This document shows, in pieces, positions 1 to 63,174 of a stretch of DNA of 64,000 nucleotides. The notes under the pieces were generated by a model. That model was not told where the DNA came from. It did not search any database and worked only from the letters and a program-made list of their open reading frames with translations. The DNA is from Escherichia phage W70. Both the position numbers and the translations under genes were made by a program. The first letter of the stretch is position 1, and each line of letters starts with the position of its first letter. The stretch lies in the sequence record OP778610; one strand, written 5' to 3'.

Positions 1-343
1 ATTGGAAAATTTTTTATATCCACAAAAATATAGGGCTTGTCAAGGTCTTTGATAAGAAATTTTCAGGAGGTGAGAATTATTCTCATTTGCAGAATAACGG
101 GCAGGGGTGGTGATTGCTTCGTGAAACCGTCCTCATCACCATGAATATATAATAGCACCGTTTTTGATTAGAAAGCAACAACATTTTAAAAATATTTTTC
201 GGTAAATTTTGGCCGAGCCACCGGCGATCCACCTTACAACCTGGCGGCGATGCCTGGTATGTTAGCCCCGCCTTTACGCCGTGGGGATGGCGATTGTTTT
301 CCTATGTAAGCATTATGGCCCCCTGGCGGGGCCGTTGTCAAGA

Positions 344-610
344 TTATTTTTTGTTTTCTTGCCAGGCCAGGACACCTAACCAAAAAATAGGATAACCGCG
401 TTTATCTTTTGGTATGTTGCTTTCCCCGCCACCGCCTTGCATCCATTCTACGCCACTGTTAAACATTTCAAGCTGATAAAGGTCGGTTATCTTTGTATCC
501 TTAAGGTTAAGGATTGTTTCAACCTTTAAGCCTGTTGCACTCGCCACTTGGTGGACCGTTCCACCTTGCCATTTTAAAGCGTGCATGAGGTGTAGTGTAG
601 TAGTTGTCAT
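344..610 (-). CDS. hypothetical protein (88 aa)
   Basis: Open frame on minus strand with weak RBS; no recognisable motif. Confidence 0.3.
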   Translation of the reverse strand: MTTTTLHLMHALKWQGGTVHQVASATGLKVETILNLKDTKITDLYQLEMFNSGVEWMQGGGGESNIPKDKRGYPIFWLGVLAWQENKK

Positions 611-722
611 GTTGTGTTGCCCTTTCTTTTGTTGTGCGCCCTGGTTGTCGCGGTAAAAAGACTATAAATGATCTTCCTTTATATAGCAAGGAAAAAGAAA
701 TTAAAAAAGATTAAAAATAATG

Positions 723-751
723 TTGACGTAGTGAATCTGGTAGCGTAGTAT
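723..751 (+). promoter_or_regulatory. sigma70-like promoter (TTGACG-17bp-TAGTAT)
   Basis: -35/-10 hexamers with 17-bp spacer upstream of ORF 809. Confidence 0.4.
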
Positions 752-808
752 TCATCTCATCGAACGGCGACATGCCAACAAGTAAACAAATAAAAGGGCA
801 ACAACAAA

Positions 809-994
809 ATGAATAAAAGAATTACAAACGTAAATCCTGGCGAACGTTTCCAACATGAGGGGCATTTGCACACTGTAGTAAGCAACAAAGAGCATACTGT
901 AAGAGTAAATAGAAATATCTTGCAACTTCGCGATCGTTTTGGTATCGTACAGACTTACACTTTCGAAGCAAATAAAACAGTTAAAACTTTCTGA
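809..994 (+). CDS. hypothetical small early protein (61 aa)
   Basis: ORF downstream of promoter; no recognisable motif. Confidence 0.45.
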   Translation: MNKRITNVNPGERFQHEGHLHTVVSNKEHTVRVNRNILQLRDRFGIVQTYTFEANKTVKTF

Positions 995-1005
995 GGATTT
1001 TTAAA

Positions 1006-1341
1006 ATGGCACTAGTCACTAAGTATTTCATTGAAGGCCAGCAAGCGGCGCAACAAGGTTACAGCCGTGTTACTCGTTACAAGAAAGAAGAAAACAAGAT
1101 TGAATTTTTCAAGGGTTACGATAGTGTAAACCGTGATGCAATGGTCCTACGCTTCGAATCCGATCCAGTGGGCAAGCCTGTTACCTCTTACCAGGCATCA
1201 CCGCAGATTGTTTATGTTGGTACTGTTAAAGAATGTAACGACAAGTTAATCACTTTGAAGCAGGCCGATCGTGCGGGTTACTTTGTTGTTTACACTGCTG
1301 ACGGTAAGCCTTACCAGTACGAAAGCAAATATTTTAAATAA
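1006..1341 (+). CDS. hypothetical protein (111 aa)
   Basis: ORF with GAGGA RBS 12 nt after previous stop. Confidence 0.5.
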   Translation: MALVTKYFIEGQQAAQQGYSRVTRYKKEENKIEFFKGYDSVNRDAMVLRFESDPVGKPVTSYQASPQIVYVGTVKECNDKLITLKQADRAGYFVVYTADGKPYQYESKYFK

Positions 1342-1347
1342 AAAGTA

Positions 1348-1405
1348 TTGACAGAAAGAAAGAAGTAAATTAAATTATACCACGTAACGCCGCAATCGTG
1401 CGGCA
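1348..1405 (+). promoter_or_regulatory. promoter (TTGACA) plus 5-prime stem-loop cassette
   Basis: TTGACA at 1348, AT-rich -10, hairpin CGCCGCAATCGTGCGGC before ORF 1423. Confidence 0.4.
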
Positions 1406-1422
1406 ATAAAAACTGATAGGAA

Positions 1423-1644
1423 TTGAACAAAATGGCTAAAATCATCATTAAAAAATCCCGTGTATCTTCTGTTGCTCGCGTCGAAATGGTAAACACTATG
1501 CCAGGTTACCGGACTCGCGAGGAAGCCCGAAGCGTTGCAAAACAGATTAAAGCCCGTGGCTTAACTGTAAGTGCACCGACCAAAACACAAGAAGGATGGA
1601 AGGTATCTATTAAATCCGGTACACTGTCGATCAATAAACACTAA
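1423..1644 (+). CDS. hypothetical basic protein (73 aa)
   Basis: ORF after promoter/hairpin cassette. Confidence 0.5.
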   Translation: MNKMAKIIIKKSRVSSVARVEMVNTMPGYRTREEARSVAKQIKARGLTVSAPTKTQEGWKVSIKSGTLSINKH

Positions 1645-1707
1645 TAGCCAAAACATTAACGGGGCAACTTTGCCCCTCACTAAATAACATTATCCAGGAG
1701 TATTAAC

Positions 1708-1866
1708 ATGACTAGCCAAAACACTAACATTGAAAAAATCAACATTACTAAAGAGCGTAAAGCATGGAATGAAACATTAAATCTGAAAGGTAAGAAGCTG
1801 AATAAAACTAAACGCGATCGCAGTACAAAGCGGGCCTTTTGTGAATTTACAGCGGATCAAGAATGA
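1708..1866 (+). CDS. hypothetical small basic protein (52 aa)
   Basis: ATG at 1708 after CAGGAG RBS; stop overlaps next ATG (ATGA); below the 60-aa ORF track cutoff. Confidence 0.4.
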   Translation: MTSQNTNIEKINITKERKAWNETLNLKGKKLNKTKRDRSTKRAFCEFTADQE

Positions 1867-2162
1867 TGATTAAAGTTATTGCACTTACTGCCTTATTGTG
1901 TATACCATTTTTGGCGCACGGTACTAAGTTTTACGGTGCTAACTTGATAGATTGTAAAGCTCATATGCTGGACCATGAAACAGGCAACAAATTTGTTAAG
2001 CCTTTCCAGATCAATCCGGCGGTGTTTACTGACGGTGTTTTATATCAGGAAGGTAAAGCCAGTACGCTGATAATCCATTACGATCCAGCGACAAAGAAAG
2101 GTAGTTTATCAATCCAGGTTGAAGGCGCGGAAGAGTTTTCAGGTAAAATAATCTGCAATTAA
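1863..2162 (+). CDS. hypothetical exported protein (99 aa)
   Basis: N-terminal hydrophobic signal-like segment MMIKVIALTALLCIPFLAHG. Confidence 0.5.
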   Translation: MMIKVIALTALLCIPFLAHGTKFYGANLIDCKAHMLDHETGNKFVKPFQINPAVFTDGVLYQEGKASTLIIHYDPATKKGSLSIQVEGAEEFSGKIICN

Positions 2163-2170
2163 TATGTTAA

Positions 2171-2199
2171 GGCCCGCCATTGTGCGGGCCTTTCTTTTA
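2171..2199 (+). terminator. rho-independent terminator
   Basis: GGCCCGC-loop-GCGGGCC hairpin followed by T-tract. Confidence 0.6.
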
Positions 2200-2222
2200 T
2201 GAAAATAATTTTGAAAATGTTG

Positions 2223-2291
2223 TTGACAGCACCGATTAAAAGCGTATGATGTATTACATCAGGACGGGGAACCAAACAAGTAACTCCCCGT
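2223..2291 (+). promoter_or_regulatory. promoter (TTGACA..TATGAT) plus stem-loop
   Basis: Hexamers with 16-bp spacer then hairpin ACGGGGA..TCCCCGT. Confidence 0.4.
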
Positions 2292-2340
2292 TAAGTAGTC
2301 CAGGAGTAAGACATACGAAAACCTCCCCTGATAAAATAGT

Positions 2341-2399
2341 TTGACAATAGTTTTTAGTACTGTATAATACATTACATCAAGGGGAGAATAGTTCTCCCC
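2341..2399 (+). promoter_or_regulatory. promoter (TTGACA-17-TATAAT) plus stem-loop cassette
   Basis: Consensus hexamers; hairpin GGGGAGAATAGTTCTCCCC; RBS then ATG 2420. Confidence 0.55.
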
Positions 2400-2419
2400 A
2401 CATCAAAGGAATCAAAACA

Positions 2420-2647
2420 ATGGCTATCGTAATCACTCGCGTATCTGGTACAGTTGGCAATGCGGCAGTAGTAGCGGTTATCACTAATAAGAAAGGTGCG
2501 GAACTACATTTTGCAATGTATAACTGGTCAGTTGATGAGTTTGGTCAGTACGCTAGTGTAGAATACATTGAAACCTATCAAGTGCCGTCGATTAGTTTAA
2601 CTGATTTGGGCGTTGAGCGTATCCTTTGCCTGGATGAATTAAATTAA
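2420..2647 (+). CDS. hypothetical protein (75 aa)
   Basis: ORF with AAGGAAT RBS after cassette. Confidence 0.5.
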   Translation: MAIVITRVSGTVGNAAVVAVITNKKGAELHFAMYNWSVDEFGQYASVEYIETYQVPSISLTDLGVERILCLDELN

Positions 2648-2655
2648 AAAAGTAC

Positions 2656-2716
2656 TTGCAAAGTAAAACGAATAACGTATAATACATTACATCAAGGGGA
2701 GAAATGATTCTCCCCA
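2656..2716 (+). promoter_or_regulatory. promoter (TTGCAA..TATAAT) plus stem-loop cassette
   Basis: Near-identical 27-mer GTATAATACATTACATCAAGGGGAGAA shared with cassette at 2362. Confidence 0.5.
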
Positions 2717-2732
2717 CTAAGAGGAAACTAAG

Positions 2733-2873
2733 ATGAAAACTTGCCAGTGTGGTAAAAAGTCTATTGCTGGTCTGCGTCGCGGTGTTGCTTTATGCCAGTA
2801 TCATTACAATAGTCAAGTATGGGGTAAAACGTGGGCTGACCAGGTTGAAGCAGCAAAGAAAGCAAAAAAGTAA
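2733..2873 (+). CDS. hypothetical Cys-rich small protein (46 aa)
   Basis: ATG after GAGGAAA RBS; CxC..C pattern; below ORF track cutoff. Confidence 0.4.
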   Translation: MKTCQCGKKSIAGLRRGVALCQYHYNSQVWGKTWADQVEAAKKAKK

Positions 2874-2930
2874 TTGACAGCAGGAAGAAAAAGAGTAAAC
2901 TGTATTACGTAGGGCGGCAATAGCGCCGCC
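2874..2930 (+). promoter_or_regulatory. promoter (TTGACA) plus stem-loop GGCGGCAATAGCGCCGCC
   Basis: Cassette similar to the one at 6724. Confidence 0.45.
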
Positions 2931-2951
2931 ACATCAAAGAGAGAAATCAAA

Positions 2952-3170
2952 ATGGCTAATATCCGCACACTGTTAAAAAATGCAAAAGAAGTTTTATTTT
3001 CTGACGATGAATATTTTAATCGCAATATCAAAGGCGTTCGGAACATTAAGGATATAAAGGAATTATTTGGAATCAAAGGTAACGTATATCGTAAAGGATT
3101 GCACGGTAATAATTTTGAATATAAGTTGGCTGATAGTGATTATAATTTTACACTGACCATCATTAGTTGA
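2952..3170 (+). CDS. hypothetical protein (72 aa)
   Basis: ORF with GAGAGA RBS after cassette. Confidence 0.5.
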   Translation: MANIRTLLKNAKEVLFSDDEYFNRNIKGVRNIKDIKELFGIKGNVYRKGLHGNNFEYKLADSDYNFTLTIIS

Positions 3171-3189
3171 AAGTTTTAATCTAGCGCTA

Positions 3190-3218
3190 TTGACTTAAGC
3201 CGATAGTGCTGGCATAAT
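3190..3218 (+). promoter_or_regulatory. sigma70-like promoter (TTGACT-17-CATAAT)
   Basis: Hexamers; cassette paralogous to promoter at 3483. Confidence 0.45.
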
Positions 3219-3250
3219 AACTTTTATCAAGAACATCAAAGGAAAGTAAA

Positions 3251-3463
3251 ATGGCTATCATTACTAAAATCAAAGTAAACAAAACACTGGTTAAGCTGGA
3301 AGAAGTGAAAGCAGGTTATAAAGTATCTTGGTGTGGCATGTATCGGATGTTCACAGATATAGACGATGCAATCAATTACTACACTAACACGATTAAAAAC
3401 TTTGTTCGTGCTGATGTGATTATTGCAGTGGAAGCACATAAAGCATCGAAAGAAAGTAAGTAA
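3251..3463 (+). CDS. hypothetical protein (70 aa)
   Basis: ORF with AAGGAAA RBS. Confidence 0.5.
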   Translation: MAIITKIKVNKTLVKLEEVKAGYKVSWCGMYRMFTDIDDAINYYTNTIKNFVRADVIIAVEAHKASKESK

Positions 3464-3482
3464 AATTATTACCACAGTACTA

Positions 3483-3511
3483 TTGACAACTACTGATAGT
3501 ACTGACATAAT
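3483..3511 (+). promoter_or_regulatory. sigma70-like promoter (TTGACA-17-CATAAT)
   Basis: Hexamers; shares CTGATAGTACTG..CATAATAACTTTTAT with promoter at 3190. Confidence 0.45.
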
Positions 3512-3556
3512 AACTTTTATTAAGTACTACAAATCAAACAAAGAGAGAATACAATC

Positions 3557-3796
3557 ATGGCTAACAACAAAACTTTTAACGGTCACAAAAACAAAACTCA
3601 TTGGAATGTTTCCTTGTGGATTAATAACGATGCATCACTGTATCGACTGGCTAATGATTTCATCGTCGCTAACACTAATCGTAACGATGCGGCCCGTCAT
3701 ATGATGTTATTTTTAGAACAAACCGGACAACATAAAACACCGGACGGATTCAAGTATAGTACTACTGCAATCCGTGCCGCGATGGTTGGGATGTAA
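3557..3796 (+). CDS. hypothetical protein (79 aa)
   Basis: ORF with GAGAGAA RBS. Confidence 0.5.
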   Translation: MANNKTFNGHKNKTHWNVSLWINNDASLYRLANDFIVANTNRNDAARHMMLFLEQTGQHKTPDGFKYSTTAIRAAMVGM

Positions 3797-3853
3797 TATT
3801 CAGTACTGAATCAATGGCGGGGAATAGTTCCCGCCTTTACTGAGGATTATCTA

Positions 3854-4138
3854 ATGAGCAAAGTAATTAATAGTAAAGTACTGAGTAAAACATTAACACT
3901 CACTGAGTGCACCAATGGCTTTTGGCTATACGATTCTACCCGTGGCATGAATATAGCTATGCAAGCGAAATCAGAGGAGGCTGCATTTGTTGAAGCCCTG
4001 GGATACTATCAGAGACGTCTACAGGAAGTAGAAAACAATTACACCAGCCTTAAAGCGAAAGTAGACCATTTCATCGGGCAAGTGGTAGAAGATGATGAGG
4101 ATGGTCACTATTGCGAACGCTGCGGATCTTACAGCTAA
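3854..4138 (+). CDS. hypothetical protein (94 aa), C-terminal CxxC
   Basis: ORF with GAGGA RBS, preceded by hairpin GGCGGGGAATAGTTCCCGCC. Confidence 0.5.
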   Translation: MSKVINSKVLSKTLTLTECTNGFWLYDSTRGMNIAMQAKSEEAAFVEALGYYQRRLQEVENNYTSLKAKVDHFIGQVVEDDEDGHYCERCGSYS

Positions 4139-4146
4139 AAAAGTAG

Positions 4147-4203
4147 TTGACACAAAGAAACAAAACAAGTAAATTAATCACATCAGGCGGGGAATGGACC
4201 CGC
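4147..4203 (+). promoter_or_regulatory. promoter (TTGACA-17-TAAATT) plus stem-loop cassette
   Basis: About 90% identical to cassette at 6264. Confidence 0.5.
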
Positions 4204-4225
4204 TAAAAGAGAAGAGAGAAATCAA

Positions 4226-4558
4226 ATGAGCTTTTTATCTATCGTACAGACTAACTTTGAAAATGATTTCATTGCTCAAGCTATCAACATCGACAAAGGT
4301 ATCCCAAATATCAATTTTGGTTACAATAGCGGTGGTTATGAAAGATACCAGTATTTTGTAACTGACGATGGAAGTGTTTTAGGTATCAATACAGTGATGG
4401 CTAATATCCAAAACATTAATTTCAATGATCCCGATGAGCGCTCATTTTATATCGTCGGTATCCAGGTAAACTATGAAGATGATACGTTAACCGATGATTA
4501 CACAGGTGAAGTATTAGAAAGTGTTTACGGTGATGAATCAGAAGAAGAAGAAGAATAA
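4226..4558 (+). CDS. hypothetical acidic protein (110 aa)
   Basis: ORF with GAGAGA RBS; C-terminal SEEEEE. Confidence 0.5.
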   Translation: MSFLSIVQTNFENDFIAQAINIDKGIPNINFGYNSGGYERYQYFVTDDGSVLGINTVMANIQNINFNDPDERSFYIVGIQVNYEDDTLTDDYTGEVLESVYGDESEEEEE

Positions 4559-4573
4559 GATTAGAAAAAGTAG

Positions 4574-4633
4574 TTGACGGAAAGAGTATAAAGAAGTAAG
4601 ATAATTAACGAATAGGGGGAAACATCTTCCCCC
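4574..4633 (+). promoter_or_regulatory. promoter (TTGACG-17-TAAGAT) plus stem-loop GGGGGAAACATCTTCCCCC
   Basis: Hexamers and hairpin before ORF 4658. Confidence 0.45.
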
Positions 4634-4657
4634 ATAAACAAAAAGAGAGATTGAAAA

Positions 4658-4840
4658 ATGACAGAACTGATTGCAACTACAAAGATCGAAGGCGTTAACG
4701 ATGTTACTTTGTCCTATGATCCTTCTACTCTGGTTTATGTTGTGAAATATGGCAGAATGATCGCAGAACTTGATTGCATTGATGAGGCTTTCGAAAAATA
4801 TTTCGAACTTATCAATATTGCTTATGATGACTACCGTTAA
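4658..4840 (+). CDS. hypothetical protein (60 aa)
   Basis: ORF with GAGAGA RBS. Confidence 0.45.
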   Translation: MTELIATTKIEGVNDVTLSYDPSTLVYVVKYGRMIAELDCIDEAFEKYFELINIAYDDYR

Positions 4841-4870
4841 TATACAACGTAAAAATAGAAAGGTGATAAA

Positions 4871-5080
4871 ATGATCAATGAAAAAACAATCAATGATGTT
4901 CGCGAGGAAGTTTTAGCCGTTGCTGTAGAATCGGGTGCACGTCAGGCATTTTGGAAAGCTACTGATCTTTACCCCGAGCAAGCCGAAAATATTCTTAATC
5001 AGGTCAGCGTTAAACTTGAACAAATAGGCAAACTGAAAACAAGTGAGCGCCTCGACCAAATCATTAAAGAAAGTTTTTGA
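4871..5080 (+). CDS. hypothetical protein (69 aa)
   Basis: ORF with AAAGGTGA RBS. Confidence 0.45.
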   Translation: MINEKTINDVREEVLAVAVESGARQAFWKATDLYPEQAENILNQVSVKLEQIGKLKTSERLDQIIKESF

Positions 5081-5144
5081 TTGACTTTTAACATTGCCCC
5101 TATTAGTATTCAGGGGCAAGATTAAAAGAAACAAGGACACAAAG

Positions 5145-5456
5145 ATGAACGATATTGTTAGCATTATAGGTTTACTGGGCGTAGGCTACGTCGCCACATC
5201 AATTACAATGAGTTACTTCAATAAAAGGCGTGATAAAATGTTTTGTTACTTTGAATACCGTTACCGTGGTAAGGTTGGATCATCCCGTGACTATGGTCCG
5301 ATGTTAGAGATTGATGCGGTTGGCGCTATGCAGTATCGCCAGTCACTAGGGGCTGAAATAATTTTTGAAGTGTACCGCAGTACAGAAGAAGAGATCCACG
5401 ACATTATTGACGAGCGTCAATATTACCACGAACAACAAACTAAACGCAGGGCTTAA
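5145..5456 (+). CDS. hypothetical membrane protein (103 aa)
   Basis: Start moved to internal ATG with AAGGA RBS; N-terminal TM helix. Confidence 0.45.
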   Translation: MNDIVSIIGLLGVGYVATSITMSYFNKRRDKMFCYFEYRYRGKVGSSRDYGPMLEIDAVGAMQYRQSLGAEIIFEVYRSTEEEIHDIIDERQYYHEQQTKRRA

Positions 5457-5459
5457 CAT

Positions 5460-5597
5460 ATGACTAATACAAACCGACAAAAAATCATCAAAACTAAAAA
5501 ACTTGATTTCAATACTTATCAAGAATGCAAGAAGAAAGTAAAAGATAAGCGAGAGAACAAGCGGCACGAATGGATAAGCAATACAATCGATCTTTAA
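5460..5597 (+). CDS. hypothetical small basic protein (45 aa)
   Basis: ATG 3 nt after previous stop; followed by terminator; below ORF track cutoff. Confidence 0.35.
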   Translation: MTNTNRQKIIKTKKLDFNTYQECKKKVKDKRENKRHEWISNTIDL

Positions 5598-5606
5598 TAT
5601 CAACCT

Positions 5607-5630
5607 AAGCCCACTATGTGGGCTTTTCTT
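5607..5630 (+). terminator. rho-independent terminator
   Basis: AAGCCCAC-loop-GTGGGCTT hairpin plus T-tract. Confidence 0.6.
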
Positions 5631-5643
5631 ATGGAGAACAGAC

Positions 5644-5871
5644 ATGATTAATATTCTTTCACTTACAGAAGTGATCCGCTTCCTCAAAAACAACGCCCTG
5701 GGAACGTCTATAACGTATCTAATCCCGCAAGGTAAGGATTATGCCAGCGTTACACGTTCAATCACTGCTACGGCTTCCAGAGAAGAAATAAAGGTCAGCG
5801 TAAGCCAATTGTTGATTGTTGATCCGTCATCTTGCGAGACTATCCAGGCAGTAAAGATAATTAGAAAATAA
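5644..5871 (+). CDS. hypothetical protein (75 aa)
   Basis: ORF with GGAGAA RBS. Confidence 0.4.
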   Translation: MINILSLTEVIRFLKNNALGTSITYLIPQGKDYASVTRSITATASREEIKVSVSQLLIVDPSSCETIQAVKIIRK

Positions 5872-5956
5872 TTTAAAAAACTTCTTGCATCCATTATTGA
5901 GAAGATGTACATTAGTTTCATCAAGACGAGATGATGACAATCAAAAGGTGATTACT

Positions 5957-6250
5957 ATGTTATACGAAGTTTTTGCGGGATTTTGTTTTTATGGTGCTGC
6001 CGCCGTTCGCCAATGTGATGATTATGTAGTTGAGTCATTCGATGATCCTTTGGCGTGTGAGATTGTTACTACGGCGTATGAGCAAGATCGCCGTTGGATT
6101 AATCCGGCCTGTATCGCATCGCCTGAGGTTGAACCTATGCCGGAAGGTGAGGAATTAACAGAGGAAGACTTGCAAGAAGTAAAAGAAGTTATGAGCTACA
6201 TGATTGATAATCTGGACGCTGAAAACTTACAACGGGCTTTGCAAAAATAA
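5957..6250 (+). CDS. hypothetical acidic protein (97 aa)
   Basis: Start moved to ATG with AAGGTG RBS. Confidence 0.45.
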   Translation: MLYEVFAGFCFYGAAAVRQCDDYVVESFDDPLACEIVTTAYEQDRRWINPACIASPEVEPMPEGEELTEEDLQEVKEVMSYMIDNLDAENLQRALQK

Positions 6251-25654: not shown

Positions 25655-26110
25655 TTACCCCTGCTTAAGCTTGAAAGATTTAAATGCTTCGATAAAGTCC
25701 ATTTCTTTTTGCGTATACTTATGATCGATTGTATCAGCGAAAAGAGGGCAACGACCATCAACCAACTTCACATCCCACAGATGTTGAGGGAGAATAAATG
25801 CAATGGCTGTAAGTGCACCATTCAAAGAATCATTCTCCTCGCAGAAAAATGCGTAAGGAATCTTCTCTATGTTTGGAGCTAAAAATCCTTCTGCAAAATT
25901 AAGCATCTTAGATTGATAGCCTCCGTTCAACAAGATCATTGTTTGGTCTTTGCTTTGCCACTGATCTACAAGGTTGTATCTGTCATCATATCGATCGGCA
26001 TAGGCAAAGCCATAATGACCTACAAGGTTTGCTGCTGCATGTGCTGCTTGGATACCTGCTTGGATTCCCATCATATAGCTGTTTACCAATACGTACATCC
26101 GAGTTTTCAA
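25655..26110 (-). CDS. hypothetical protein, possible Pth2-like peptidyl-tRNA hydrolase fold
   Basis: N-terminal MYVLVN..MGIQAGIQAAHAAANL resembles the Pth2 MGKGKxAAQxxHA region (recalled, weak). Confidence 0.35.
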   Translation of the reverse strand: MKTRMYVLVNSYMMGIQAGIQAAHAAANLVGHYGFAYADRYDDRYNLVDQWQSKDQTMILLNGGYQSKMLNFAEGFLAPNIEKIPYAFFCEENDSLNGALTAIAFILPQHLWDVKLVDGRCPLFADTIDHKYTQKEMDFIEAFKSFKLKQG

Positions 26111-26427
26111 TTCTTACCTCCGAAAATTCTTTTTGCAAATTTTTCATTACCTAACGTCATGTTGTAGAAAACTATAATTGAATAGACAATCCACGCAAGG
26201 ACATAAAATAAAATCAAGAAAGGCCAGCCCACAAACCAAAACACTGTCATTATTAACCAGCCCGTCATAAGGAGTTTATAATTAACATTCCCGTGATTTA
26301 AAGGGTCAAGTAAGTTACTGTTCTCTGGCAGGGTGATACGAAACCCACCTTGACGAAGCTTGATCAAAAAGAACCAAGCAGCAGAACTTATAATGCAACA
26401 TAAAATATATATCAGTAATCCTGTCAT
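26107..26427 (-). CDS. small membrane protein, tandem paralogue A (106 aa)
   Basis: Shares FLIKLRQ.GF.I..P and three TM helices with the next gene. Confidence 0.5.
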   Translation of the reverse strand: MTGLLIYILCCIISSAAWFFLIKLRQGGFRITLPENSNLLDPLNHGNVNYKLLMTGWLIMTVFWFVGWPFLILFYVLAWIVYSIIVFYNMTLGNEKFAKRIFGGKN

Positions 26428-26753
26428 TTTTTAACTCCGAAGATCTTAGATAGTAATTTATCATTCCCGATAGTTACACCACAAAAACTTTTTACTCCGT
26501 ATACTAGATACGACCCGATTGTAACACAGATAATGATCGGATAAACAAGATACCAAAAGAATGTTGCAAGTATCCACCCTGCCATCACCATACGTAAATT
26601 TACATTTTCGTTATTCAGTGGCTCCAGGATATAAATATCCTCACAATCTTTTGGGAAGGGGATGTTGAACCCCTTCTGCCGTAATTTGATCAGTAAGAAC
26701 CAAAGTGGGCAACTAATAAGACAACCTATTAAATAACCTTCAACCATTTTCAC
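26424..26753 (-). CDS. small membrane protein, tandem paralogue B (109 aa)
   Basis: Paralogue of 26107..26427. Confidence 0.5.
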   Translation of the reverse strand: MKMVEGYLIGCLISCPLWFLLIKLRQKGFNIPFPKDCEDIYILEPLNNENVNLRMVMAGWILATFFWYLVYPIIICVTIGSYLVYGVKSFCGVTIGNDKLLSKIFGVKK

Positions 26754-27990: not shown

Positions 27991-28028
27991 TCCTTCTTCT
28001 CCCATTCTTTCCAATTCTGCATGTCCGC

Positions 28029-28193
28029 TCATAGCCATCCCCTTTCTTTATACCCTTTTGTAAATCCTGATTCCCAATCTTGAAATTGCTCCGGCATGGT
28101 GTTTGGATTATACGGGTTGTTTCTCTTGAACATCCCAAACTTGAATCCAGCGGCTCGGCCCTTCTCGTATGCTGAACTGCTTTTTCTTGTCAT
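28029..28193 (-). CDS. hypothetical small basic protein (54 aa)
   Basis: Start at ATG after AAGAGGAGAA RBS. Confidence 0.4.
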   Translation of the reverse strand: MTRKSSSAYEKGRAAGFKFGMFKRNNPYNPNTMPEQFQDWESGFTKGYKERGWL

Positions 28194-28519
28194 ACTCTTT
28201 CTCCTCTTAAATTTAAAGACCAATCTTTTATTTCTTCTTTCCAGTTCGTATTTCTCTTAATGTCTTGCTTTTGACCGCGAAGATAGTTAATGATCTCAAG
28301 CGGGTCTTGCTTAACAAAAGAAATATTGTCGATCGGGCACTCAACTAACTTAAGCATCCTTTCAAAACGATTATACTCATCTTCTGATTTCGGTGCAACA
28401 GGAATAACATCATAATCTTCAAGATTGTCGAGAGTTTCAAGGGTAACCCTCATCTCGTAGCCTTCTAATCTCTTTGTCTTGATACCAAACACTCTTCGAA
28501 AGTAAATGTAATATTTCAT
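28190..28519 (-). CDS. hypothetical protein (109 aa)
   Basis: ORF. Confidence 0.5.
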   Translation of the reverse strand: MKYYIYFRRVFGIKTKRLEGYEMRVTLETLDNLEDYDVIPVAPKSEDEYNRFERMLKLVECPIDNISFVKQDPLEIINYLRGQKQDIKRNTNWKEEIKDWSLNLRGERV

Positions 28520-28572
28520 TATGTTCTCCTACTTAATGATCATCATTATACACATCCCTGAATTCAAGTCAA

Positions 28573-28600
28573 CAAAAAAGGCCACCCGAAGGTGACCTTT
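28573..28600 (-). terminator. rho-independent terminator (minus strand)
   Basis: GGTCACC-loop-GGTGGCC hairpin plus T-run. Confidence 0.55.
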
Positions 28601-28604
28601 AAAT

Positions 28605-29114
28605 TTAAGGGTGAATCCAGTAAAAAGGTTTTGTTAAACCAAGTTTACCTTTCGGGTCCCAAATGAAGTAGGCATACGCCGCACCATCTGTTTTCCCATC
28701 CTCAGTAAAAGAGGGTCGCTTGGATAGAGTAACCAAGTGATCAACAGGATATTCCTTCCAGAACTCCACACGTTTGGTACTCTCAAGGAAACCTAAACGA
28801 AGCAGCATTATCACCACATCAGCATCCTTGTGAGCCTTCTCTACAAACTCTTGAGCTAAATTATAAGGTGGGTTAGTTAACACACAATCTACCTTATTGT
28901 ATTTAGTTGCAAGATAATCAACACCTTCTTGAATCTCTCCCCAAGCTGAACCAATTGGCATTTCATTATAAAAACGTCCAGAGGCTCTGCAAGGTTCCAG
29001 ATAAGTCCAATCCTGACGGATTGGAACTAAATTCAAGAAAGCATCTACTGCCCATTTCGGAGTTTCATAGCGATCATTTTCACGGCGCTCTGCTTTAGGT
29101 TTCAATGCTGCCAC
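28605..29114 (-). CDS. putative phage Dam-type DNA N6-adenine methyltransferase (169 aa)
   Basis: NPPY catalytic motif (CVLTNPPYN); small size. Confidence 0.5.
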   Translation of the reverse strand: MAALKPKAERRENDRYETPKWAVDAFLNLVPIRQDWTYLEPCRASGRFYNEMPIGSAWGEIQEGVDYLATKYNKVDCVLTNPPYNLAQEFVEKAHKDADVVIMLLRLGFLESTKRVEFWKEYPVDHLVTLSKRPSFTEDGKTDGAAYAYFIWDPKGKLGLTKPFYWIHP

Positions 29115-29116
29115 TC

Positions 29117-29962
29117 TTATTTGCCCCCTTCTTTCGCCGCAGTGATGATCTGTTCAATTAACTCATCACGATAATAAACGTACTGTTCAACACCGAAACA
29201 TTCCGCAATCTCGTCTAGTTCGTCGAGGTTGTACTCGTCAAAGTCTCGTGGGTTAAGAGTAAAGATGTTGAATTTTTTGGCGTAGCCTTCGTCGAGGACG
29301 ATTTCAAATTCTCCCTCTCCGATTTCCTTCGCATCATCAACATCACTCGATTCGATTGACCCTTCAACCTTAATCCCCCCTGTATTTTGTTGATCGGCTT
29401 CCATTTGCTTTTTAATTGCTTCATCTTCAGCGGTCAAACGGGCTTGCATCTGAGAGGAAGTGAAGTAAATTTCGCCAGCACGATCAAACAGTTCAACGAG
29501 TTCATCTTCTGTCATAACACCCTTGTACAGATCGTAGTATTTCTCTTTGAACAGGTCTTTGTAGAAATCGCTACGTTTAAATACCAGTGCTGAATCACCA
29601 CCCATACTCATCTGAACGTTGTGGAACATGTAATGAGAACCTGGACGACAAATTCGAACATGACCAGACAAGAAGATCATTGTTGCAGCACTTGCCACTT
29701 CACCAATACCGTGTGTTACAACAGTCGCCTTTGTTTCAGAGATCGCTGTCATGTACATATCTGCGATATCACAATAACCACCACAAGAAGTAATGTACAG
29801 ATTTACAATATCACCTTCAGGTGCTGAACGAATCAGGTCAACAGCCTCGATATGTGCTTCAGGTGAATTGTGCAGATCCGTAACATAAATACGCCAATCG
29901 TTAGAAGTTACTGGAGACACCCAAATGTTTTTTGCCGGACCATTCATTACGATTTCTTCCAT
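29117..29962 (-). CDS. ClpP/S14-like serine protease
   Basis: YITSCGGY..THGIGEVASAATMIF..HNVQ resembles the ClpP core. Confidence 0.55.
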   Translation of the reverse strand: MEEIVMNGPAKNIWVSPVTSNDWRIYVTDLHNSPEAHIEAVDLIRSAPEGDIVNLYITSCGGYCDIADMYMTAISETKATVVTHGIGEVASAATMIFLSGHVRICRPGSHYMFHNVQMSMGGDSALVFKRSDFYKDLFKEKYYDLYKGVMTEDELVELFDRAGEIYFTSSQMQARLTAEDEAIKKQMEADQQNTGGIKVEGSIESSDVDDAKEIGEGEFEIVLDEGYAKKFNIFTLNPRDFDEYNLDELDEIAECFGVEQYVYYRDELIEQIITAAKEGGK

Positions 29963-29974
29963 ATTAATTCCCCC

Positions 29975-30445
29975 TTAGCTAATTAAAGTACGGATGCGGG
30001 TAGCGTTTTGCAGAACCCAGTCTACTACGACAGAATGATCAGAGTCAACAATTACTTCATGATGACGTTTGAACATATCAAGAATCTTTGCTGCTTCGGC
30101 AGTATAAAGTGCCGCACGATCTAAAAAGATAATCTGCTCTTTAAGTTCTTCTGTAATCGGACATAACTTACTTGGGACCTTGATGGCTGACAAATGTTCT
30201 ACCAACTCTTTTCGAGTAGAGAACATAATATCAACTTCCTGATCGATACTAAGAGAGCCTAAGAATAAGCGAGAAAACCATCCACGATACTCATCGTTGT
30301 TTTTACGCAAAGTCTTAATTCCAAATATTAACTCTTCGAACAGGGCTGTTGCAATTTCTTCAATACGATCAGGAACAATAGCCCCACAATTTTTCAATTC
30401 CATCAGTTTACGATGATCAACTGTTGCGTACATACCCTTATCCAT
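29975..30445 (-). CDS. hypothetical protein (156 aa)
   Basis: ORF. Confidence 0.5.
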   Translation of the reverse strand: MDKGMYATVDHRKLMELKNCGAIVPDRIEEIATALFEELIFGIKTLRKNNDEYRGWFSRLFLGSLSIDQEVDIMFSTRKELVEHLSAIKVPSKLCPITEELKEQIIFLDRAALYTAEAAKILDMFKRHHEVIVDSDHSVVVDWVLQNATRIRTLIS

Positions 30446-30453
30446 ATCACCCC

Positions 30454-30771
30454 TTAAATTCCGATTAAATATTTAAACTTCCCGTCGTTCTCTGCGATCT
30501 TGTGGATTACATAGAACCAATTTTCAATTCCGTCTTCATCTTCCTCTTTCACACGATCACCAGTTTTTAACTCAACCTCGGAAACGTACTCCTTACTTTC
30601 AAGGAAATACTTCCACTGAACCATGTCTTTAAAATTACAGATTAGTTTATTTTTGCCATCTGTCGTCCAAAGGTCCTGATTGACCCACATACCAACAACG
30701 AAATTCTTTTCTTTCTTAGGACGACCAAGTGCATAAGTGTTGTTTAACATCTTTGCTTTATCTAAGACCAC
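30454..30771 (-). CDS. hypothetical protein (105 aa)
   Basis: ORF. Confidence 0.5.
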   Translation of the reverse strand: MVLDKAKMLNNTYALGRPKKEKNFVVGMWVNQDLWTTDGKNKLICNFKDMVQWKYFLESKEYVSEVELKTGDRVKEEDEDGIENWFYVIHKIAENDGKFKYLIGI

Positions 30772-31375
30772 GTTTTGACTCCAAGTTAACTAAGAAACTC
30801 TCAAGCACTGCGATGTTGTCTTCTTTCCAAAGATTAAGTGTTCTTACACCATTCTTCTTTGCCAGATTGACTGCTGTTGCAGTGCCGCCTTTAGGATTAC
30901 CCGTCTTTGTTTCCTTTGCGTAGTATATCACAAATTTACTTTGCATCAAGTAGGCATTTGAAAGATTTTTACCAAAAATTTGGTGTACGTTTCTTTCGTG
31001 TAATTTCCTTGCCCCTTGACTCAACTTGTCCCATCCACCATGAACTTCCTTTATCCATTCCCATCGCATTTCTGTATGTTCTGGAAATTCTTTATCAATC
31101 GTGTTCAGGGAGATATTATACAGATCTTTAAGTCCTTGTCCACCTTTAAAGTTGTCCCAAGGAACATATATCTCTGCAAGTTTGCTCGGTGATTGAGTCA
31201 TATTGCAATCTTCATGAAACTTCTGCATACCTCTTTGGAAAGCTGCATCTGCACCATCTGCACCGCCAGATCGTAATGTATATCCGACCCTTGCTAATCT
31301 CCAACCCGCATCTTCCATAATTTTTAATACTTCTTCAGGGGCCTCCCTTGAACCTATTCCTGTATAAGCTGGCAC
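30758..31375 (-). CDS. DprA/Smf-like (SLOG) Rossmann-fold protein
   Basis: GIGSREAP..LRSGGADGADAAFQRG; start set at GTG after AAGGAGG RBS to avoid overlap with nrdG. Confidence 0.45.
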   Translation of the reverse strand: MPAYTGIGSREAPEEVLKIMEDAGWRLARVGYTLRSGGADGADAAFQRGMQKFHEDCNMTQSPSKLAEIYVPWDNFKGGQGLKDLYNISLNTIDKEFPEHTEMRWEWIKEVHGGWDKLSQGARKLHERNVHQIFGKNLSNAYLMQSKFVIYYAKETKTGNPKGGTATAVNLAKKNGVRTLNLWKEDNIAVLESFLVNLESKRGLR

Positions 31376-31376
31376 T

Positions 31377-31859
31377 TTAACCTCCTTCATCTTCAGTTGA
31401 CCAGTACCCATTAACTTTTTTCCAAAGTCTTTGGTTATCTGATCCCCTGAATCTTTTAGTTGTAGGTTTGTTTTCATCATACTTGCCATCCATGATTAAG
31501 TCAACGTATTTCTTTATTTCCTCATCTAAGTCTTGAAAAAGATACCCTGTCCACACCATGATATCTTTACTCTCACCAAAGCACGACTTTACTTCCTTGA
31601 TAATTCTTTTTACAACATCAATATTCTCAGGGTCAAGAGGTTCTCCACCCATAATTGACAATCCACTGATAAAATTTCGAGAAAGATCTTTTTTCAAACT
31701 CTCCATATCTTCATCTGTGAATTCTTTCCCATACCTGTATGACCAAGCCTTTTGGTTAAAACAACCCTTACACTTATGACTGCATCCACTAACCCAGAGA
31801 GAGGTTCTTACCCCCTCTCCATTGATGAAGTCTGTTCTTTCATATCCGCAAATGTTCAA
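31377..31859 (-). CDS. nrdG: anaerobic ribonucleotide reductase activating protein (radical SAM)
   Basis: CSHKCKGC cluster; 4-nt overlap with nrdD. Confidence 0.85.
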   Translation of the reverse strand: MNICGYERTDFINGEGVRTSLWVSGCSHKCKGCFNQKAWSYRYGKEFTDEDMESLKKDLSRNFISGLSIMGGEPLDPENIDVVKRIIKEVKSCFGESKDIMVWTGYLFQDLDEEIKKYVDLIMDGKYDENKPTTKRFRGSDNQRLWKKVNGYWSTEDEGG

Positions 31860-33936: not shown

Positions 33937-34683
33937 TTAATTACCTCCTTTAAGATCCTTTTCACGAGCCTTGACAACTGCCTTACAGAATGGACTACGA
34001 ACGATTTCTTCACTAGTCGCTTCAACATAATCGGCAAAGTCGTAAAGTTCATGACGATCAATGAATTCGATTGCCCATTCTAATCCAGTTTCACGATTAC
34101 GCATATCGTTCTGTGTGATATCGCCTAAGCAGAACAGCTTAGAACTTTCACCTTTACGAGTCATGATCGTGTAAGCCGTATCTTCATCTGTGTTCTGAAA
34201 CTCATCGACAATAACAACCGCATTATCGAAAGAACGCCCACGGATATATTCCAGAGGAACAAATTCAATGTTACCACAACCCAACTGAGTTTCAAAGAAA
34301 CCGTGACCGTAGCGTTGCTGAATAACCTGAATAAGTGCCTGAAGGAAAGGCTCGAATTTCTCACGGATAGTCCCAGGTAGTAACCCGAGGCTGTTCCCCA
34401 TTCCCAATGTTGGTCGAGTAAGGACGATCTTTTCAATCTTACCTTGCTTCAGCCAATCAATAACGGTACTCATAATGACAAATGTCTTACCTGTACCCGC
34501 CGGAGCGTTAACGAAAACAACTTCCTTCTCGTTAACCAGAGATAACAATTCCTTTTGGAATCGGTTCTTTGGAGTAATAGGTTTTTTCAACTCTTCATAG
34601 GCTTTAGGTGTTACCTGACGGCCTTTTGAACGCTTCTCTTCACGACGATCCTGACGAGATTTACGATTAGTATGACGTTGCAT
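33937..34683 (-). CDS. phoH: PhoH-like ATPase
   Basis: Walker A GTGKTF; Walker B VIVDEFQN. Confidence 0.85.
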   Translation of the reverse strand: MQRHTNRKSRQDRREEKRSKGRQVTPKAYEELKKPITPKNRFQKELLSLVNEKEVVFVNAPAGTGKTFVIMSTVIDWLKQGKIEKIVLTRPTLGMGNSLGLLPGTIREKFEPFLQALIQVIQQRYGHGFFETQLGCGNIEFVPLEYIRGRSFDNAVVIVDEFQNTDEDTAYTIMTRKGESSKLFCLGDITQNDMRNRETGLEWAIEFIDRHELYDFADYVEATSEEIVRSPFCKAVVKAREKDLKGGN

Positions 34684-61413: not shown

Positions 61414-61485
61414 GGCCCTGTAGCTGGACGGTTCAAGCAAGCGACTCATAATCGCCAGACGGTGGTTCGATTCCACCCAGGGCCA
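61414..61485 (+). tRNA. tRNA with anticodon CAT (Met or Ile2)
   Basis: Acceptor GGCCCTG/CAGGGCC, T-arm GGTGG-TTCGATT-CCACC, loop CTCATAA, CCA encoded. Confidence 0.8.
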
Positions 61486-61621
61486 CCATACAAAGTCGGG
61501 TAGCTCCCGATAAGTCGTCGGACTGATGTTCCCTGACTATGAGTTCTCTCAACGATAACGACGTAGATCACAGCAGAAACGGCGCACCCTATTATATTTC
61601 TTAATACATTTCAATAAGTTC

Positions 61622-61650
61622 TTGACATAATCCTATTATACTGCTAATAT
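61622..61650 (+). promoter_or_regulatory. sigma70-like promoter (TTGACA-17-TAATAT)
   Basis: Hexamers upstream of ORF 61678. Confidence 0.5.
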
Positions 61651-61677
61651 AGATATATCGACTGAATTGAGGTGTTT

Positions 61678-62052
61678 ATGGCTAAAGCTGAAATCGTTAC
61701 TCGAAAACGCGGTCGGCCTACTACAGAGGAAAGCATTGCAATCAATACTGAGAGAGCAATTCTTCATGCTCGTTCCGAGTTTGCAAGACTTACTCCTCAA
61801 GCAATTAAAACTCTGGAAGGTCTACTGACTTCCGGTACAGAGAAAGTTAAAGAAACTACTGCGAAGTATATTCTTGAGCAAGCTGAAAAGGCAAACAATC
61901 TGTACACAATGGAAGATAATGAAGAGGATCTGGCAGGAGGAACTACTTCTGCAAATTCAGAAACTCATCAAGGCCCTTCTGATGCATTTAAAGATGCTAT
62001 CCCATTAACTACTCAGATTCGTGAGTATAAAATGGCAGAAGGTGAAGATTAA
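61678..62052 (+). CDS. hypothetical protein with AT-hook-like KRGRP motif
   Basis: ATG after GAGGTG RBS; RKRGRPTT. Confidence 0.5.
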   Translation: MAKAEIVTRKRGRPTTEESIAINTERAILHARSEFARLTPQAIKTLEGLLTSGTEKVKETTAKYILEQAEKANNLYTMEDNEEDLAGGTTSANSETHQGPSDAFKDAIPLTTQIREYKMAEGED

Positions 62053-62075
62053 GGCTCGCAAGGGCCTTTATTAAG
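62052..62075 (+). terminator. terminator-like hairpin with GCAA tetraloop
   Basis: AGGCTC-GCAA-GGGCCT followed by T-rich tract. Confidence 0.45.
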
Positions 62076-62297
62076 AAGTTTTCTTTAAGGTAGTTCTTAC
62101 TTTAGCAGAGTAAATCTTCGGCAAGTGGCGGTAACCACTTTACCGATACCTCATAGTCAGTGCTGCAAACACTGGCTACCTTAAAGAGAATTTAACTCGT
62201 CGAATAAGGAAGATGCTGATCTCAAAGTGAGGTCACTTACCGCAAGGGGTGTGCATAGACTCCCGCTTCCGAATAGACTATGTGGCGAGATGTATTT

Positions 62298-62376
62298 GGG
62301 GACGTGGCAGAGCGGTCGAATGCGCCTGACTGTAAATCAGGTATCCCACACGGTGGTTCGAATCCATCCGGCCCCA
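62298..62376 (+). tRNA. tRNA-Tyr (anticodon GTA)
   Basis: AC arm CCTGA-CTGTAAA-TCAGG; T-arm GGTGG-TTCGAAT-CCATC; acceptor with one A-G mismatch; CCA encoded. Confidence 0.7.
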
Positions 62377-62382
62377 CCAAAT

Positions 62383-62455
62383 TTTCCGTTAGGCTTACAG
62401 GATAAGATTCCCACAACATATCGTTGTGATACTGGTTCGAATCCAGTACGGAAAC
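62383..62455 (+). ncRNA. tRNA-like element (noncanonical anticodon arm)
   Basis: Perfect acceptor TTTCCGT/ACGGAAA and T-arm ACTGG-TTCGAAT-CCAGT; internal hairpin CACAAC-ATATC-GTTGTG. Confidence 0.45.
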
Positions 62456-62582
62456 CAAATTAAGCCGTGATGTGATGTAATCACTGACCTCTTTGAAGGA
62501 TCATGGCATTTTATACAAAAACCTGAATAATTTAGGTTTTAATTCCTGGGGTTCGTAGCCCTATTACTAAGAGGACTTAACT

Positions 62583-62792
62583 ATGTTTACTATTAAAATT
62601 ATTGATATCGATGGAAATGAGACTGGTGTTTCAACAAGGCACTATAGATGGTACTCAAAAATGAATATTTTTGATCTGGAGGGTGGTGAATCTGTTTCTG
62701 TACCACCAAAAAGTCGTGCTTATGTAATGAATGACAAAGGAATAACCATCGGTAGATACACAAATACAGCGGATCAACGCGTTCTTAATTAA
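62583..62792 (+). CDS. hypothetical protein (69 aa) inside tRNA cluster
   Basis: ORF with AAGAGGA RBS. Confidence 0.5.
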   Translation: MFTIKIIDIDGNETGVSTRHYRWYSKMNIFDLEGGESVSVPPKSRAYVMNDKGITIGRYTNTADQRVLN

Positions 62793-62793
62793 A

Positions 62794-62865
<72 letters not shown>

Positions 62866-62966
62866 CCAAACCTCTATCCATCTGACGCGTTTATGGGGTT
62901 GACCTGATCACTCTTCTCCTAATCTCGTGTGAAGACACCATGATTGTTGGGATGGATAAACTTCTT

Positions 62967-63038
62967 TTGGGGATTAGCCAAGCGGTAAGGCATCGGATTT
63001 TGATTCCGACATTCACTGGTTCGATTCCAGTATCCCCA
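62967..63038 (+). tRNA. tRNA-Gln (anticodon TTG)
   Basis: Acceptor TGGGGAT/ATCCCCA (U1-A72); AC arm TCGGA-TTTTGAT-TCCGA; T-arm ACTGG-TTCGATT-CCAGT. Confidence 0.9.
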
Positions 63039-63046
63039 GCCAATTA

Positions 63047-63121
<75 letters not shown>

Positions 63122-63174
63122 CCAATTTACCCTCATATAATAACAATAATATAATCTCCTCTCCTTCGCCTCAG

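Follow-up and report, generated by a model that had tools for sequence, protein, structure and literature searches.

Genes for ClpP-like proteins located outside the structural modules are a widespread and routinely annotated class of phage genes. More than 1,000 sequenced phages carry them (T5-like, rV5-like, ICP1, Vibrio T4-like), and relatives were detected with tblastn in 1,214 phage records. No functional study of these non-structural proteins, which belong to PHROG 5410 and 1827, was found in the literature searched. Here, a gene of this class is described together with the adjacent methyltransferase (MTase) gene from a 64,000-nucleotide stretch of phage DNA, the whole of which is referred to below as the window. 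Escherichia phage A73 (OP778609.1; 142,009 bp), a member of Vequintavirinae for which the genus Septuagintavirus has been proposed, shows 100% identity to positions 28000-31500 of the window, and window position 1 corresponds to position 78010 of the A73 record. Both genes were already listed in the description of phage A73 (PMC11370258). The pair is also annotated in hundreds of genomes and is not a new kind of element.

The described relatives are found in various gene arrangements. T5-like phages have dNMP kinase-ClpP-holin-lysozyme and ICP1 has PhoH-HNH-gp210-ClpP-like gp211; in a schizoT4 Vibrio phage the ClpP-like gene is located between frd and uvsX. The stop codon of PhoH overlaps the ClpP start in Otagovirus, and the aeromonad phage KLEP7 has the order PhoH-x-Clp-...-Pth2-CCA. 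In the BASEL phage DrSchubert the orthologous pair is annotated as 'ClpP-like protease' and 'putative N6 adenine methyltransferase'. The peptidase of the window shares the non-structural context with the PHROG 5410 and 1827 proteins of rV5-like phages, T5-like phages, ICP1 (gp211) and schizoT4 Vibrio phages. Its membership in PHROG 5410 ('ATP-dependent protease', category 'other') extends over the full length, residues 11-278 matching positions 17-312 of the 323-position profile (E=2.8e-77). In contrast, the PHROG 1827 members of T5 and ICP1 share only the core with it (about 25% identity, residues ~12-190) and have other C-terminal extensions or none.

The peptidase gene, A73_220, occupies positions 29117..29962 on the minus strand (281 aa, ATG start; A73 record 107126-107971) and the MTase gene, A73_221, positions 28605..29114 on the same strand (169 aa, GTG start; PHROG 799). 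The two open reading frames (ORFs), which had been placed at these coordinates in a preliminary description, are real genes and not chance ORFs: the PHROG 5410 match is accompanied by a match of the MTase to PHROG 799 (E=4.3e-63), database searches returned 39 homologues of the peptidase and 170 of the MTase, and the AF2 models of both proteins are confident (pLDDT 80.6 and 92.8, respectively). The MTase had been described as followed by the protease; the adjacency is confirmed, but the order is the reverse: with both genes on the minus strand, transcription reaches the ClpP-like gene first, and the GTG of the MTase gene comes 2 nt after the TAA of the peptidase gene. The Shine-Dalgarno (SD) sequence of the peptidase, AAGGGGGA, is located 7 nt ahead of its ATG, and that of the MTase (AAGGGGG) lies within the 3' end of the peptidase gene. 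Due to the 2-nt gap and this position of the MTase SD, the two genes are probably translationally coupled. An intrinsic-terminator-like hairpin (28577..28600, minus strand; 10-bp stem, 5 GC pairs, T-run) begins 5 nt past the MTase stop, and a near-consensus sigma-70-type promoter (28545..28572, minus strand; TTGACT-16-TATAAT, 11/12) serves the next gene, phrog_12008 (28190..28519). Since hairpin and promoter stand directly past the MTase gene, the pair closes a transcription unit, which also contains NrdD, NrdG, a DprA-like protein and two small proteins (PHROG 5456 and PHROG 7224). The immediate succession of hairpin and promoter (28545-28600, minus strand) forms a sharp boundary between transcription units.

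The reading favoured for the pair as a whole, with a probability of about 0.6, is that of an intracellular, non-virion peptidase of ClpP fold co-expressed with a minimal N6-methyladenine (m6A) MTase.

Fold, catalytic residues and C-terminal extension of the peptidase

The 281-aa protein is a virus-type ClpP-fold serine peptidase with predicted activity. The Pfam CLP_protease model (PF00574) matches residues 51-122 only, with 34 bits passing its cut-off of 20.2. The AF2 model consists of a ClpP core (~20-194) with a long handle helix (124-147), an acidic linker and a small C-terminal domain. All the top 50 Foldseek matches in the PDB were ClpP (E~3e-8, TM(target) ~0.67), and the matches to viral ClpP-like models were stronger, with E down to 4e-19. 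A match to Peptidase_S49, which would indicate an SppA-type protease or lambda protease C, was absent in Pfam at E<=0.01. The ClpP/S14-like serine protease proposed in the preliminary description is supported by this S14-type fold and by the conserved catalytic Ser and His described below.

The 39 homologues range from 229 to 448 aa, with nearly all at 268-344 aa; in most cases more than 85% of the query is covered. They are only 31-58% identical. The longest homologue-bearing contigs are phage genomes of 140-150 kb. The conservation within the family was determined from an alignment of 24 of the homologues, and the catalytic Ser and His were placed by hhalign, with the E. coli ClpP encoded in NC_000913.3 as the reference. 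The catalytic nucleophile, Ser91 (GEVASAA; codon 29690..29692, minus strand), is invariant (24/24) and aligns with E. coli ClpP Ser111 of the precursor, i.e. Ser97 of the mature protein. His114 (MFHNV; codon 29621..29623, minus strand) is invariant too and aligns with His136 of the precursor (mature His122). In the case of Glu164 (RAGEIYF; codon 29471..29473, minus strand), Glu was found in 23 of the 24 sequences and Asp in one divergent member. By alignment alone (HMM alignment with P. aeruginosa ClpP2, 'ERDFWL'), Glu164 falls on the position of the catalytic Asp and is the putative third member of the triad. Gly61-Gly62 is invariant in the family, Gly62 being the oxyanion-hole glycine.

Cellular ClpP (MEROPS S14, PF00574; E. 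coli ClpP 1TYF) and the phage peptidase have in common the fold, the aligned Ser, His and oxyanion Gly, and the long handle helix. The phage peptidase differs from it by the Glu at the Asp position, the largely charged docking pocket, and the extra acidic linker and 66-aa C-terminal domain. Its identity to E. coli ClpP is 23% over 128 aligned columns, and the cut-offs of the NCBIfam ClpP models were missed roughly 8-20-fold in bits: 13.4 vs 308.6 for TIGR00493, 24 vs 249 for PRK00277 and 28.9 vs 228 for PRK12553. Residues Y60, Y62, F82, I90, M92, F112 and L114 of E. coli ClpP form the hydrophobic apical pocket for the IGF/LGF loops of ClpX/ClpA and for ADEP. According to the hhalign mapping, the family has at these positions E/N, L/Y, D/E, R/H, I, I/V and D/E/R, respectively, so that four of the seven (Y60, F82, I90, L114) are aligned with charged or polar residues. 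As judged from this mapping, the hydrophobic ClpX/ClpA docking pocket is not conserved in the phage peptidase.

The acidic C-terminal extension noticed previously was confirmed: residues 178-281 (104 residues) have a net charge of -19 and a pI of 4.05, and the acidity is conserved across the family. The extension consists of two parts. The acidic linker (residues 178-215; 29318..29431, minus strand; net charge -7) comprises the tail of a long helix followed by a low-confidence stretch, residues 196-215, with pLDDT <50, which is modelled as disordered; the linker varies in length within the family, with insertions of up to ~60 aa. The acidic C-terminal domain (residues 216-281, 66 aa; 29120..29317, minus strand; net charge -12) is modelled as beta-beta-alpha-alpha-alpha with pLDDT 81-91 and is conserved, with the consensus GDEFDITLDxGYKKTFRLSTLxPKDFDEYNxxEIxEIGxxFG... 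This domain had no significant match to a known domain, and the profile search of the PDB returned chance antibody matches only. Its assignment to Rho_N/HeH (SAP-like) was rejected, the Pfam match being sub-threshold (E=0.0036, 17.7 vs 24.9 bits) and detected in one of 13 members; likewise, a relation to the N-terminus of Rho was discarded at an hhalign probability of 0.4% against E. coli Rho.

The NPPY methyltransferase

The NPPY of the 169-aa protein, reported in the preliminary description, is located at residues 81-84 (28863..28874, minus strand) as motif IV of an amino-methyltransferase core. Motif X (DRYETP) corresponds to residues 14-19 and motif I (LEPCRASGRF) to residues 39-48. Conserved in 37 homologues are D-x-Y-x-TP (14-19), EPC-x-x-x-G (40-46), TNPP(Y/F) (80-84), LLR-x-x-FL and RPSF...G-x-TD-x-x-Y. 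The order X-I-IV with NPPY is the gamma arrangement of M.TaqI and not the alpha arrangement of Dam. The Dam-type assignment made earlier was therefore not upheld; besides this motif order, the protein has no Pfam match and scores 13.6 bits with the phage-Dam equivalog TIGR01712, the cut-off of which is 97.05. What it shares with Dam (alpha class, GATC) is the (D/N)PPY catalytic motif and probably the m6A chemistry, whereas the Dam models are not matched and its order of motifs does not fit the alpha class.

With the gamma-class MTases (TaqI/Eco57I/HsdM-like) the phage protein has in common the motif order X-I-(II-III)-IV with NPPY and the Rossmann MTase fold. Unlike them, it is just 169 aa long and has neither a target-recognition domain nor a Pfam family. 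The spacing from motif I to NPPY (motif IV) is only ~35 residues, too short to hold a recognition domain, and the AF2 model is a single compact Rossmann domain that ends ~85 residues past NPPY. No S-subunit-like gene was adjacent to the MTase gene among the ORFs and annotations of the window. Judged by its motifs, the protein is a minimal amino-methyltransferase core of gamma/TaqI order without a recognition domain and is not of Dam type. The closest structural matches of the model were the gamma-class m6A DNA MTases CamA, HsdM, M.BseCI and PacII (E~1e-5, TM(query) ~0.6), and the rRNA adenine dimethylases Dim1, KsgA and ErmC scored about equally (E~1e-5, TM~0.6).

The frequencies of short sites were determined in 114 kb, i.e. 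in positions 1-50000 of the A73 record and the window. GATC was neither avoided nor enriched (682 sites, observed/expected (O/E) 1.02), and its statistics were set aside as uninformative on the specificity of the MTase. Several 6-bp palindromes were absent from the same 114 kb (observed vs expected): CTGCAG 0 vs 26, CAGCTG 0 vs 13, CGTACG 0 vs 11.7, CACGTG 0 vs 9.1 and CCATGG 0 vs 9. The O/E values of CTAG, CCGG and CATG were 0.58-0.69. The missing and depleted palindromes suggest restriction-site avoidance.

Proposed role of the pair and competing explanations

According to the favoured reading, the peptidase and MTase genes would be the last two genes of a minus-strand transcription unit expressed presumably early or in the middle of infection. 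The peptidase would be made within the infected cell, being neither a part of the virion nor a prohead protease, and would most likely assemble into a ClpP-like chamber that cleaves polypeptides of the host or the phage. Its substrates or partners would be picked through its own C-terminal domain and not through canonical docking of host ClpX/ClpA. It may be the host-protein-degrading factor suggested in the preliminary description. The MTase would most likely place m6A on phage DNA, probably with narrow specificity. A functional link between the two proteins that goes beyond co-expression is conceivable.

The capsid genes of A73 are not adjacent to the pair. The head module is located at positions 1-6240 of the A73 record and encodes TerL, portal, XkdF/S78_2 protease, scaffold-like protein, decoration protein and an E-type major capsid protein (MCP). 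The XkdF/Peptidase_S78_2 prohead protease (190 aa; A73 record 3103-3675) is encoded between the portal and the scaffold/MCP genes, on the strand opposite to the ClpP-like gene. The distance from the head module to the ClpP-like gene is ~104 kb in the deposited record and ~37 kb across the record ends; the non-structural location given in the preliminary description is confirmed. Phage W70 has 96% nucleotide similarity to A73 (PMC11370258). In the W70 virions, 28 proteins were identified by tandem mass spectrometry with electrospray ionization (ESI-MS/MS); the capsid maturation protease was among them and the ClpP-like protein was not listed (PMC11370258). The suggestion of a misplaced maturation protease is not supported, because a separate XkdF-type protease is present both in a complete head module and in W70 virions, where the ClpP-like protein is unlisted. 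Neither of the findings that would have refuted the preliminary description was made: the capsid genes are not next to the pair, and the catalytic Ser and His are present.

A more general explanation, in which the ClpP-like protein serves either as an additional or displaced prohead protease or in processing of the scaffold, is largely refuted. It draws on a clan-level likeness in fold to the ClpP-related head proteases and on profile matches that are weak, namely those to the PHROG 'head maturation protease' families phrog_1684 (3.7e-17) and phrog_94 (1e-11) and to NF045542 (NCBIfam Clp_rel_HeadMat, ClpP-related head maturation protease; E=1.5e-7). The last of these reaches 31.5 bits against a cut-off of 120. 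Moreover, the capsid genes are at least ~37 kb away and on the other strand, the ClpP-like gene being part of a nucleotide-metabolism operon, and the relatives in other phage lineages are also found outside head modules. Most GenBank records carry the label 'ATP-dependent Clp protease proteolytic subunit', which would mean that the protein docks on host ClpX or ClpA, either by itself or together with host ClpP in mixed rings, and diverts the ATP-dependent proteolysis of the host. The ClpP fold, the conserved catalytic centre and the handle helix are consistent with such a role, and hhalign places the N-terminus of the phage peptidase on the start of mature E. coli ClpP. Since no AAA+ unfoldase was annotated in the stretches of the A73 record that were inspected (50 kb and 43.5 kb) or in the cassettes of the relatives, a host partner would be needed for the unfolding of proteins. 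The charged or polar residues at four of the seven IGF-loop pocket positions throughout the family, the scores of 13-30 bits where the equivalog and subfamily models of ClpP require 228-308, the low identity to host ClpP and the conserved 100-aa acidic tail, which has no counterpart in cellular ClpP, all argue against it, and this explanation is considered unlikely. It is much less probable still that the protein is a non-catalytic decoy that would use its acidic tail to titrate out Clp components of the host or a defence protein: the tail is indeed conserved and strongly acidic, but the invariance or near-invariance of Ser91, His114, Gly62 and the acidic residue 164 among homologues as divergent as these would be unexpected for a pseudo-enzyme.

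In the case of the MTase, methylation of RNA (adenine or guanine of tRNA or rRNA) or of protein glutamine in place of DNA has to be weighed. Dim1, KsgA, ErmC and a putative archaeal RNA MTase score equally with the DNA MTases, a DNA-recognition domain is absent, and a gene for CCA tRNA nucleotidyltransferase is located 0.6 kb downstream. The published annotation of the MTase is based solely on the NPPY PROSITE pattern IPR002052 (PMC11370258). Vequintavirinae have been reported as 'exceptionally susceptible' to restriction-modification systems although the orthologue is present in them. On the other hand, 'YETPxxxVD...LEPxxGxG...NPPY' is the arrangement of TaqI-like DNA MTases such as M.TaqI, and the weak PADLOC matches were to type II MTases only. 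DNA is also favoured as the substrate by the distribution of the MTase family, which was detected in 565 phage records, including those of small temperate phages (34-60 kb) without tRNA-related genes. In such temperate phages anti-restriction DNA methylation is the usual role of an MTase. Methylation of RNA or protein is, on balance, doubtful.

Several points weigh against the favoured reading. The virion proteome was determined for W70 and not for A73, and proteins with fewer than 25 spectra were left out of the list. Glu in place of Asp is unusual in the triad and was placed by alignment; ring formation, activity and independence of ClpX/ClpA would likewise be read from an alignment of ~20% identity. 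As no homologue of the C-terminal domain is recognisable, the selection of substrates or partners by this domain is a guess. The fold of the MTase resembles rRNA adenine methylases equally well, and the restriction-sensitive Vequintavirinae carry an orthologue of 60% identity, leaving DNA protection unproven; by the same homology, a non-specific or frequent-site m6A methylase is disfavoured. If the peptidase does act independently of ClpX/ClpA and is targeted by its tail, the label 'ATP-dependent Clp protease subunit' is misleading on many records, and the ClpP-like gene would become a candidate for a factor of host takeover or anti-defence in phages employed in therapy.

Conserved gene order and neighbouring genes

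The block ...(phrog_5456)-(phrog_7224)-ClpP-like-MTase is conserved in six genera of Vequintavirinae (Septuaginta-, Certre-, Seuna-, Henuna-, Avuna- and Vequintavirus). The longer order (endolysin-PhoH)-DprA-like-phrog_5456-phrog_7224-ClpP-like-MTase-...-CCA transferase was found in Certrevirus, Seunavirus, Henunavirus and Avunavirus, and with small variations in Vequintavirus. PhoH directly precedes the DprA-like gene in four other genera inspected; the Vequintavirus block is without the DprA-like gene, and the inspected Avunavirus stretch shows no PhoH. From environmental data (IMG/VR), 80 loci were collected, 75 of which are not Vequintavirinae-like. The latter encode ClpP-like versions of ~200 aa, and their nearest neighbours are RuvC, MTases of other families, endolysin, ligase, RNR, PhoH and primase. 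Head genes were not found among the 25 commonest neighbour families of the 75 loci. Like the relatives in T5-like phages, ICP1 and schizoT4 phages, these genes are surrounded by genes of DNA metabolism or lysis. NPPY/DPPY motifs were absent from the neighbours of the environmental ClpP-like genes, and the MTase adjacency seen through PHROG 757/363 therefore concerns other families. A general linkage between PhoH and ClpP was considered and dismissed: it holds in Vequintavirinae, ICP1, phiPsa315 and KLEP7, but PhoH lies within 7 kb in just three of the other 75 IMG/VR loci, and the T5-like and schizoT4 phages are without PhoH.

In two phages of the sister subfamily Stephanstirmvirinae, tuntematon and muut, the order is glutaredoxin-lysozyme-PhoH-x-[peptidase]-x-MTase, with an MTase 44% identical to that of A73. 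The syntenic slot of the ClpP-like gene is occupied there by HslV-like peptidase genes (tuntematon NC_052660.1, L014:2830-3522; muut NC_052657.1, L097:2380-3033). The HslV-like peptidase was identified by Pfam Proteasome (25.6 bits, cut-off 22.4), PHROG 1040 (2.7e-63) and HslV in the PDB (E=4.9e-9); its N-terminus is MTTI with Thr2 as the nucleophile. Both peptidases have an acidic C-terminal tail, whereas their folds are unrelated, the HslV-like one being of Ntn/proteasome type. Homology of the two tails, proposed by eye from 'DFDEYNxxEL..FG' and 'DLENFSKEEL..FG', was rejected (hhalign E=0.03 over 11 columns, profile-profile E=0.51). In this slot, one chambered peptidase seems to have been replaced by another, non-orthologous one. 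Neither the ClpP-like nor the HslV-like slot has an obvious AAA+ partner gene. Speculatively, and with little probability, the PhoH-to-MTase slot could be a conserved position for a 'chambered peptidase', ClpP-fold in Vequintavirinae and HslV/proteasome-fold in Stephanstirmvirinae, and could mark an unrecognised phage proteolytic module for a host-takeover or counter-defence step, either ATPase-independent with tail targeting or partnered with the PhoH-like ATPase. A 267-aa protein of Escherichia phage VEcB, P0225, joins the N-terminal ~110 residues of PhoH to the C-terminal ~155 residues of an HslV-like protein and is without the Thr nucleophile. This chimera probably arose by a deletion across the intervening gene or by an error of assembly there, and it was not accepted as evidence for a PhoH-HslV partnership, as the N-terminal Thr of HslV is missing.

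Upstream of the ClpP-like gene, the conserved cassette genes of PHROG 7224 (156 aa; 29975..30445) and PHROG 5456 (105 aa; 30454..30771) are both located on the minus strand. A PHROG 7224 homologue of the Salmonella phage SSBI34, P0038 (448 aa), is annotated as an in-frame fusion with the ClpP-like protein. As a sign of an interaction between the two proteins, this fusion was judged too weak, since it was found in one of 39 homologues and may be a sequencing or annotation artefact. No similarity was detected between the 156-aa PHROG 7224 protein and the proteins flanking the HslV-like gene. The DprA-like/SLOG-type protein of PHROG 768 (30758..31489, minus strand; in the A73 record with a shorter start at 31375) opens the conserved block in most genera. 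It gave a weak PADLOC match to PsyrA (E=3.9e-5) and only sub-threshold matches to DprA, and may be a SLOG/LOG-like nucleotide-binding protein and not a recombination mediator. The PhoH-like ATPase A73_214 (33937..34683, minus strand) is separated from the DprA-like gene by NrdD and NrdG in A73.

Of the neighbourhood claimed earlier, the nucleotide-metabolism part is correct, with NrdD, NrdG, PhoH and the DprA-like protein. The tRNA part is not: the five tRNA genes (Met-CAT, Tyr-GTA, Gly-TCC, Gln-TTG, Pro-TGG) are located at 61414-63124 on the plus strand, ~32 kb from the pair, and only the CCA transferase gene is near. The tRNA cluster belongs to a plus-strand region near the record end, and the sign of the GC skew flips at ~10 kb and ~60 kb of the window, marking switches of the transcribed strand. 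Downstream of the CCA transferase gene, a 151-aa protein (25655-26110, minus strand) belongs to PHROG 3668 'hydrolase' and has no Pfam match. At a comparable position, phage KLEP7 encodes a Pth2-type peptidyl-tRNA hydrolase; by this analogy, the PHROG 3668 protein might be part of a tRNA-repair set. Two adjacent, overlapping ORFs downstream of the CCA transferase gene (26107-26427 and 26424-26753, minus strand) encode visibly similar hydrophobic proteins of 106 and 109 aa. Both contain 'LIKLRQxGF...' and both end in 'IFGxKx', and they resemble tandem paralogues of a small membrane protein.

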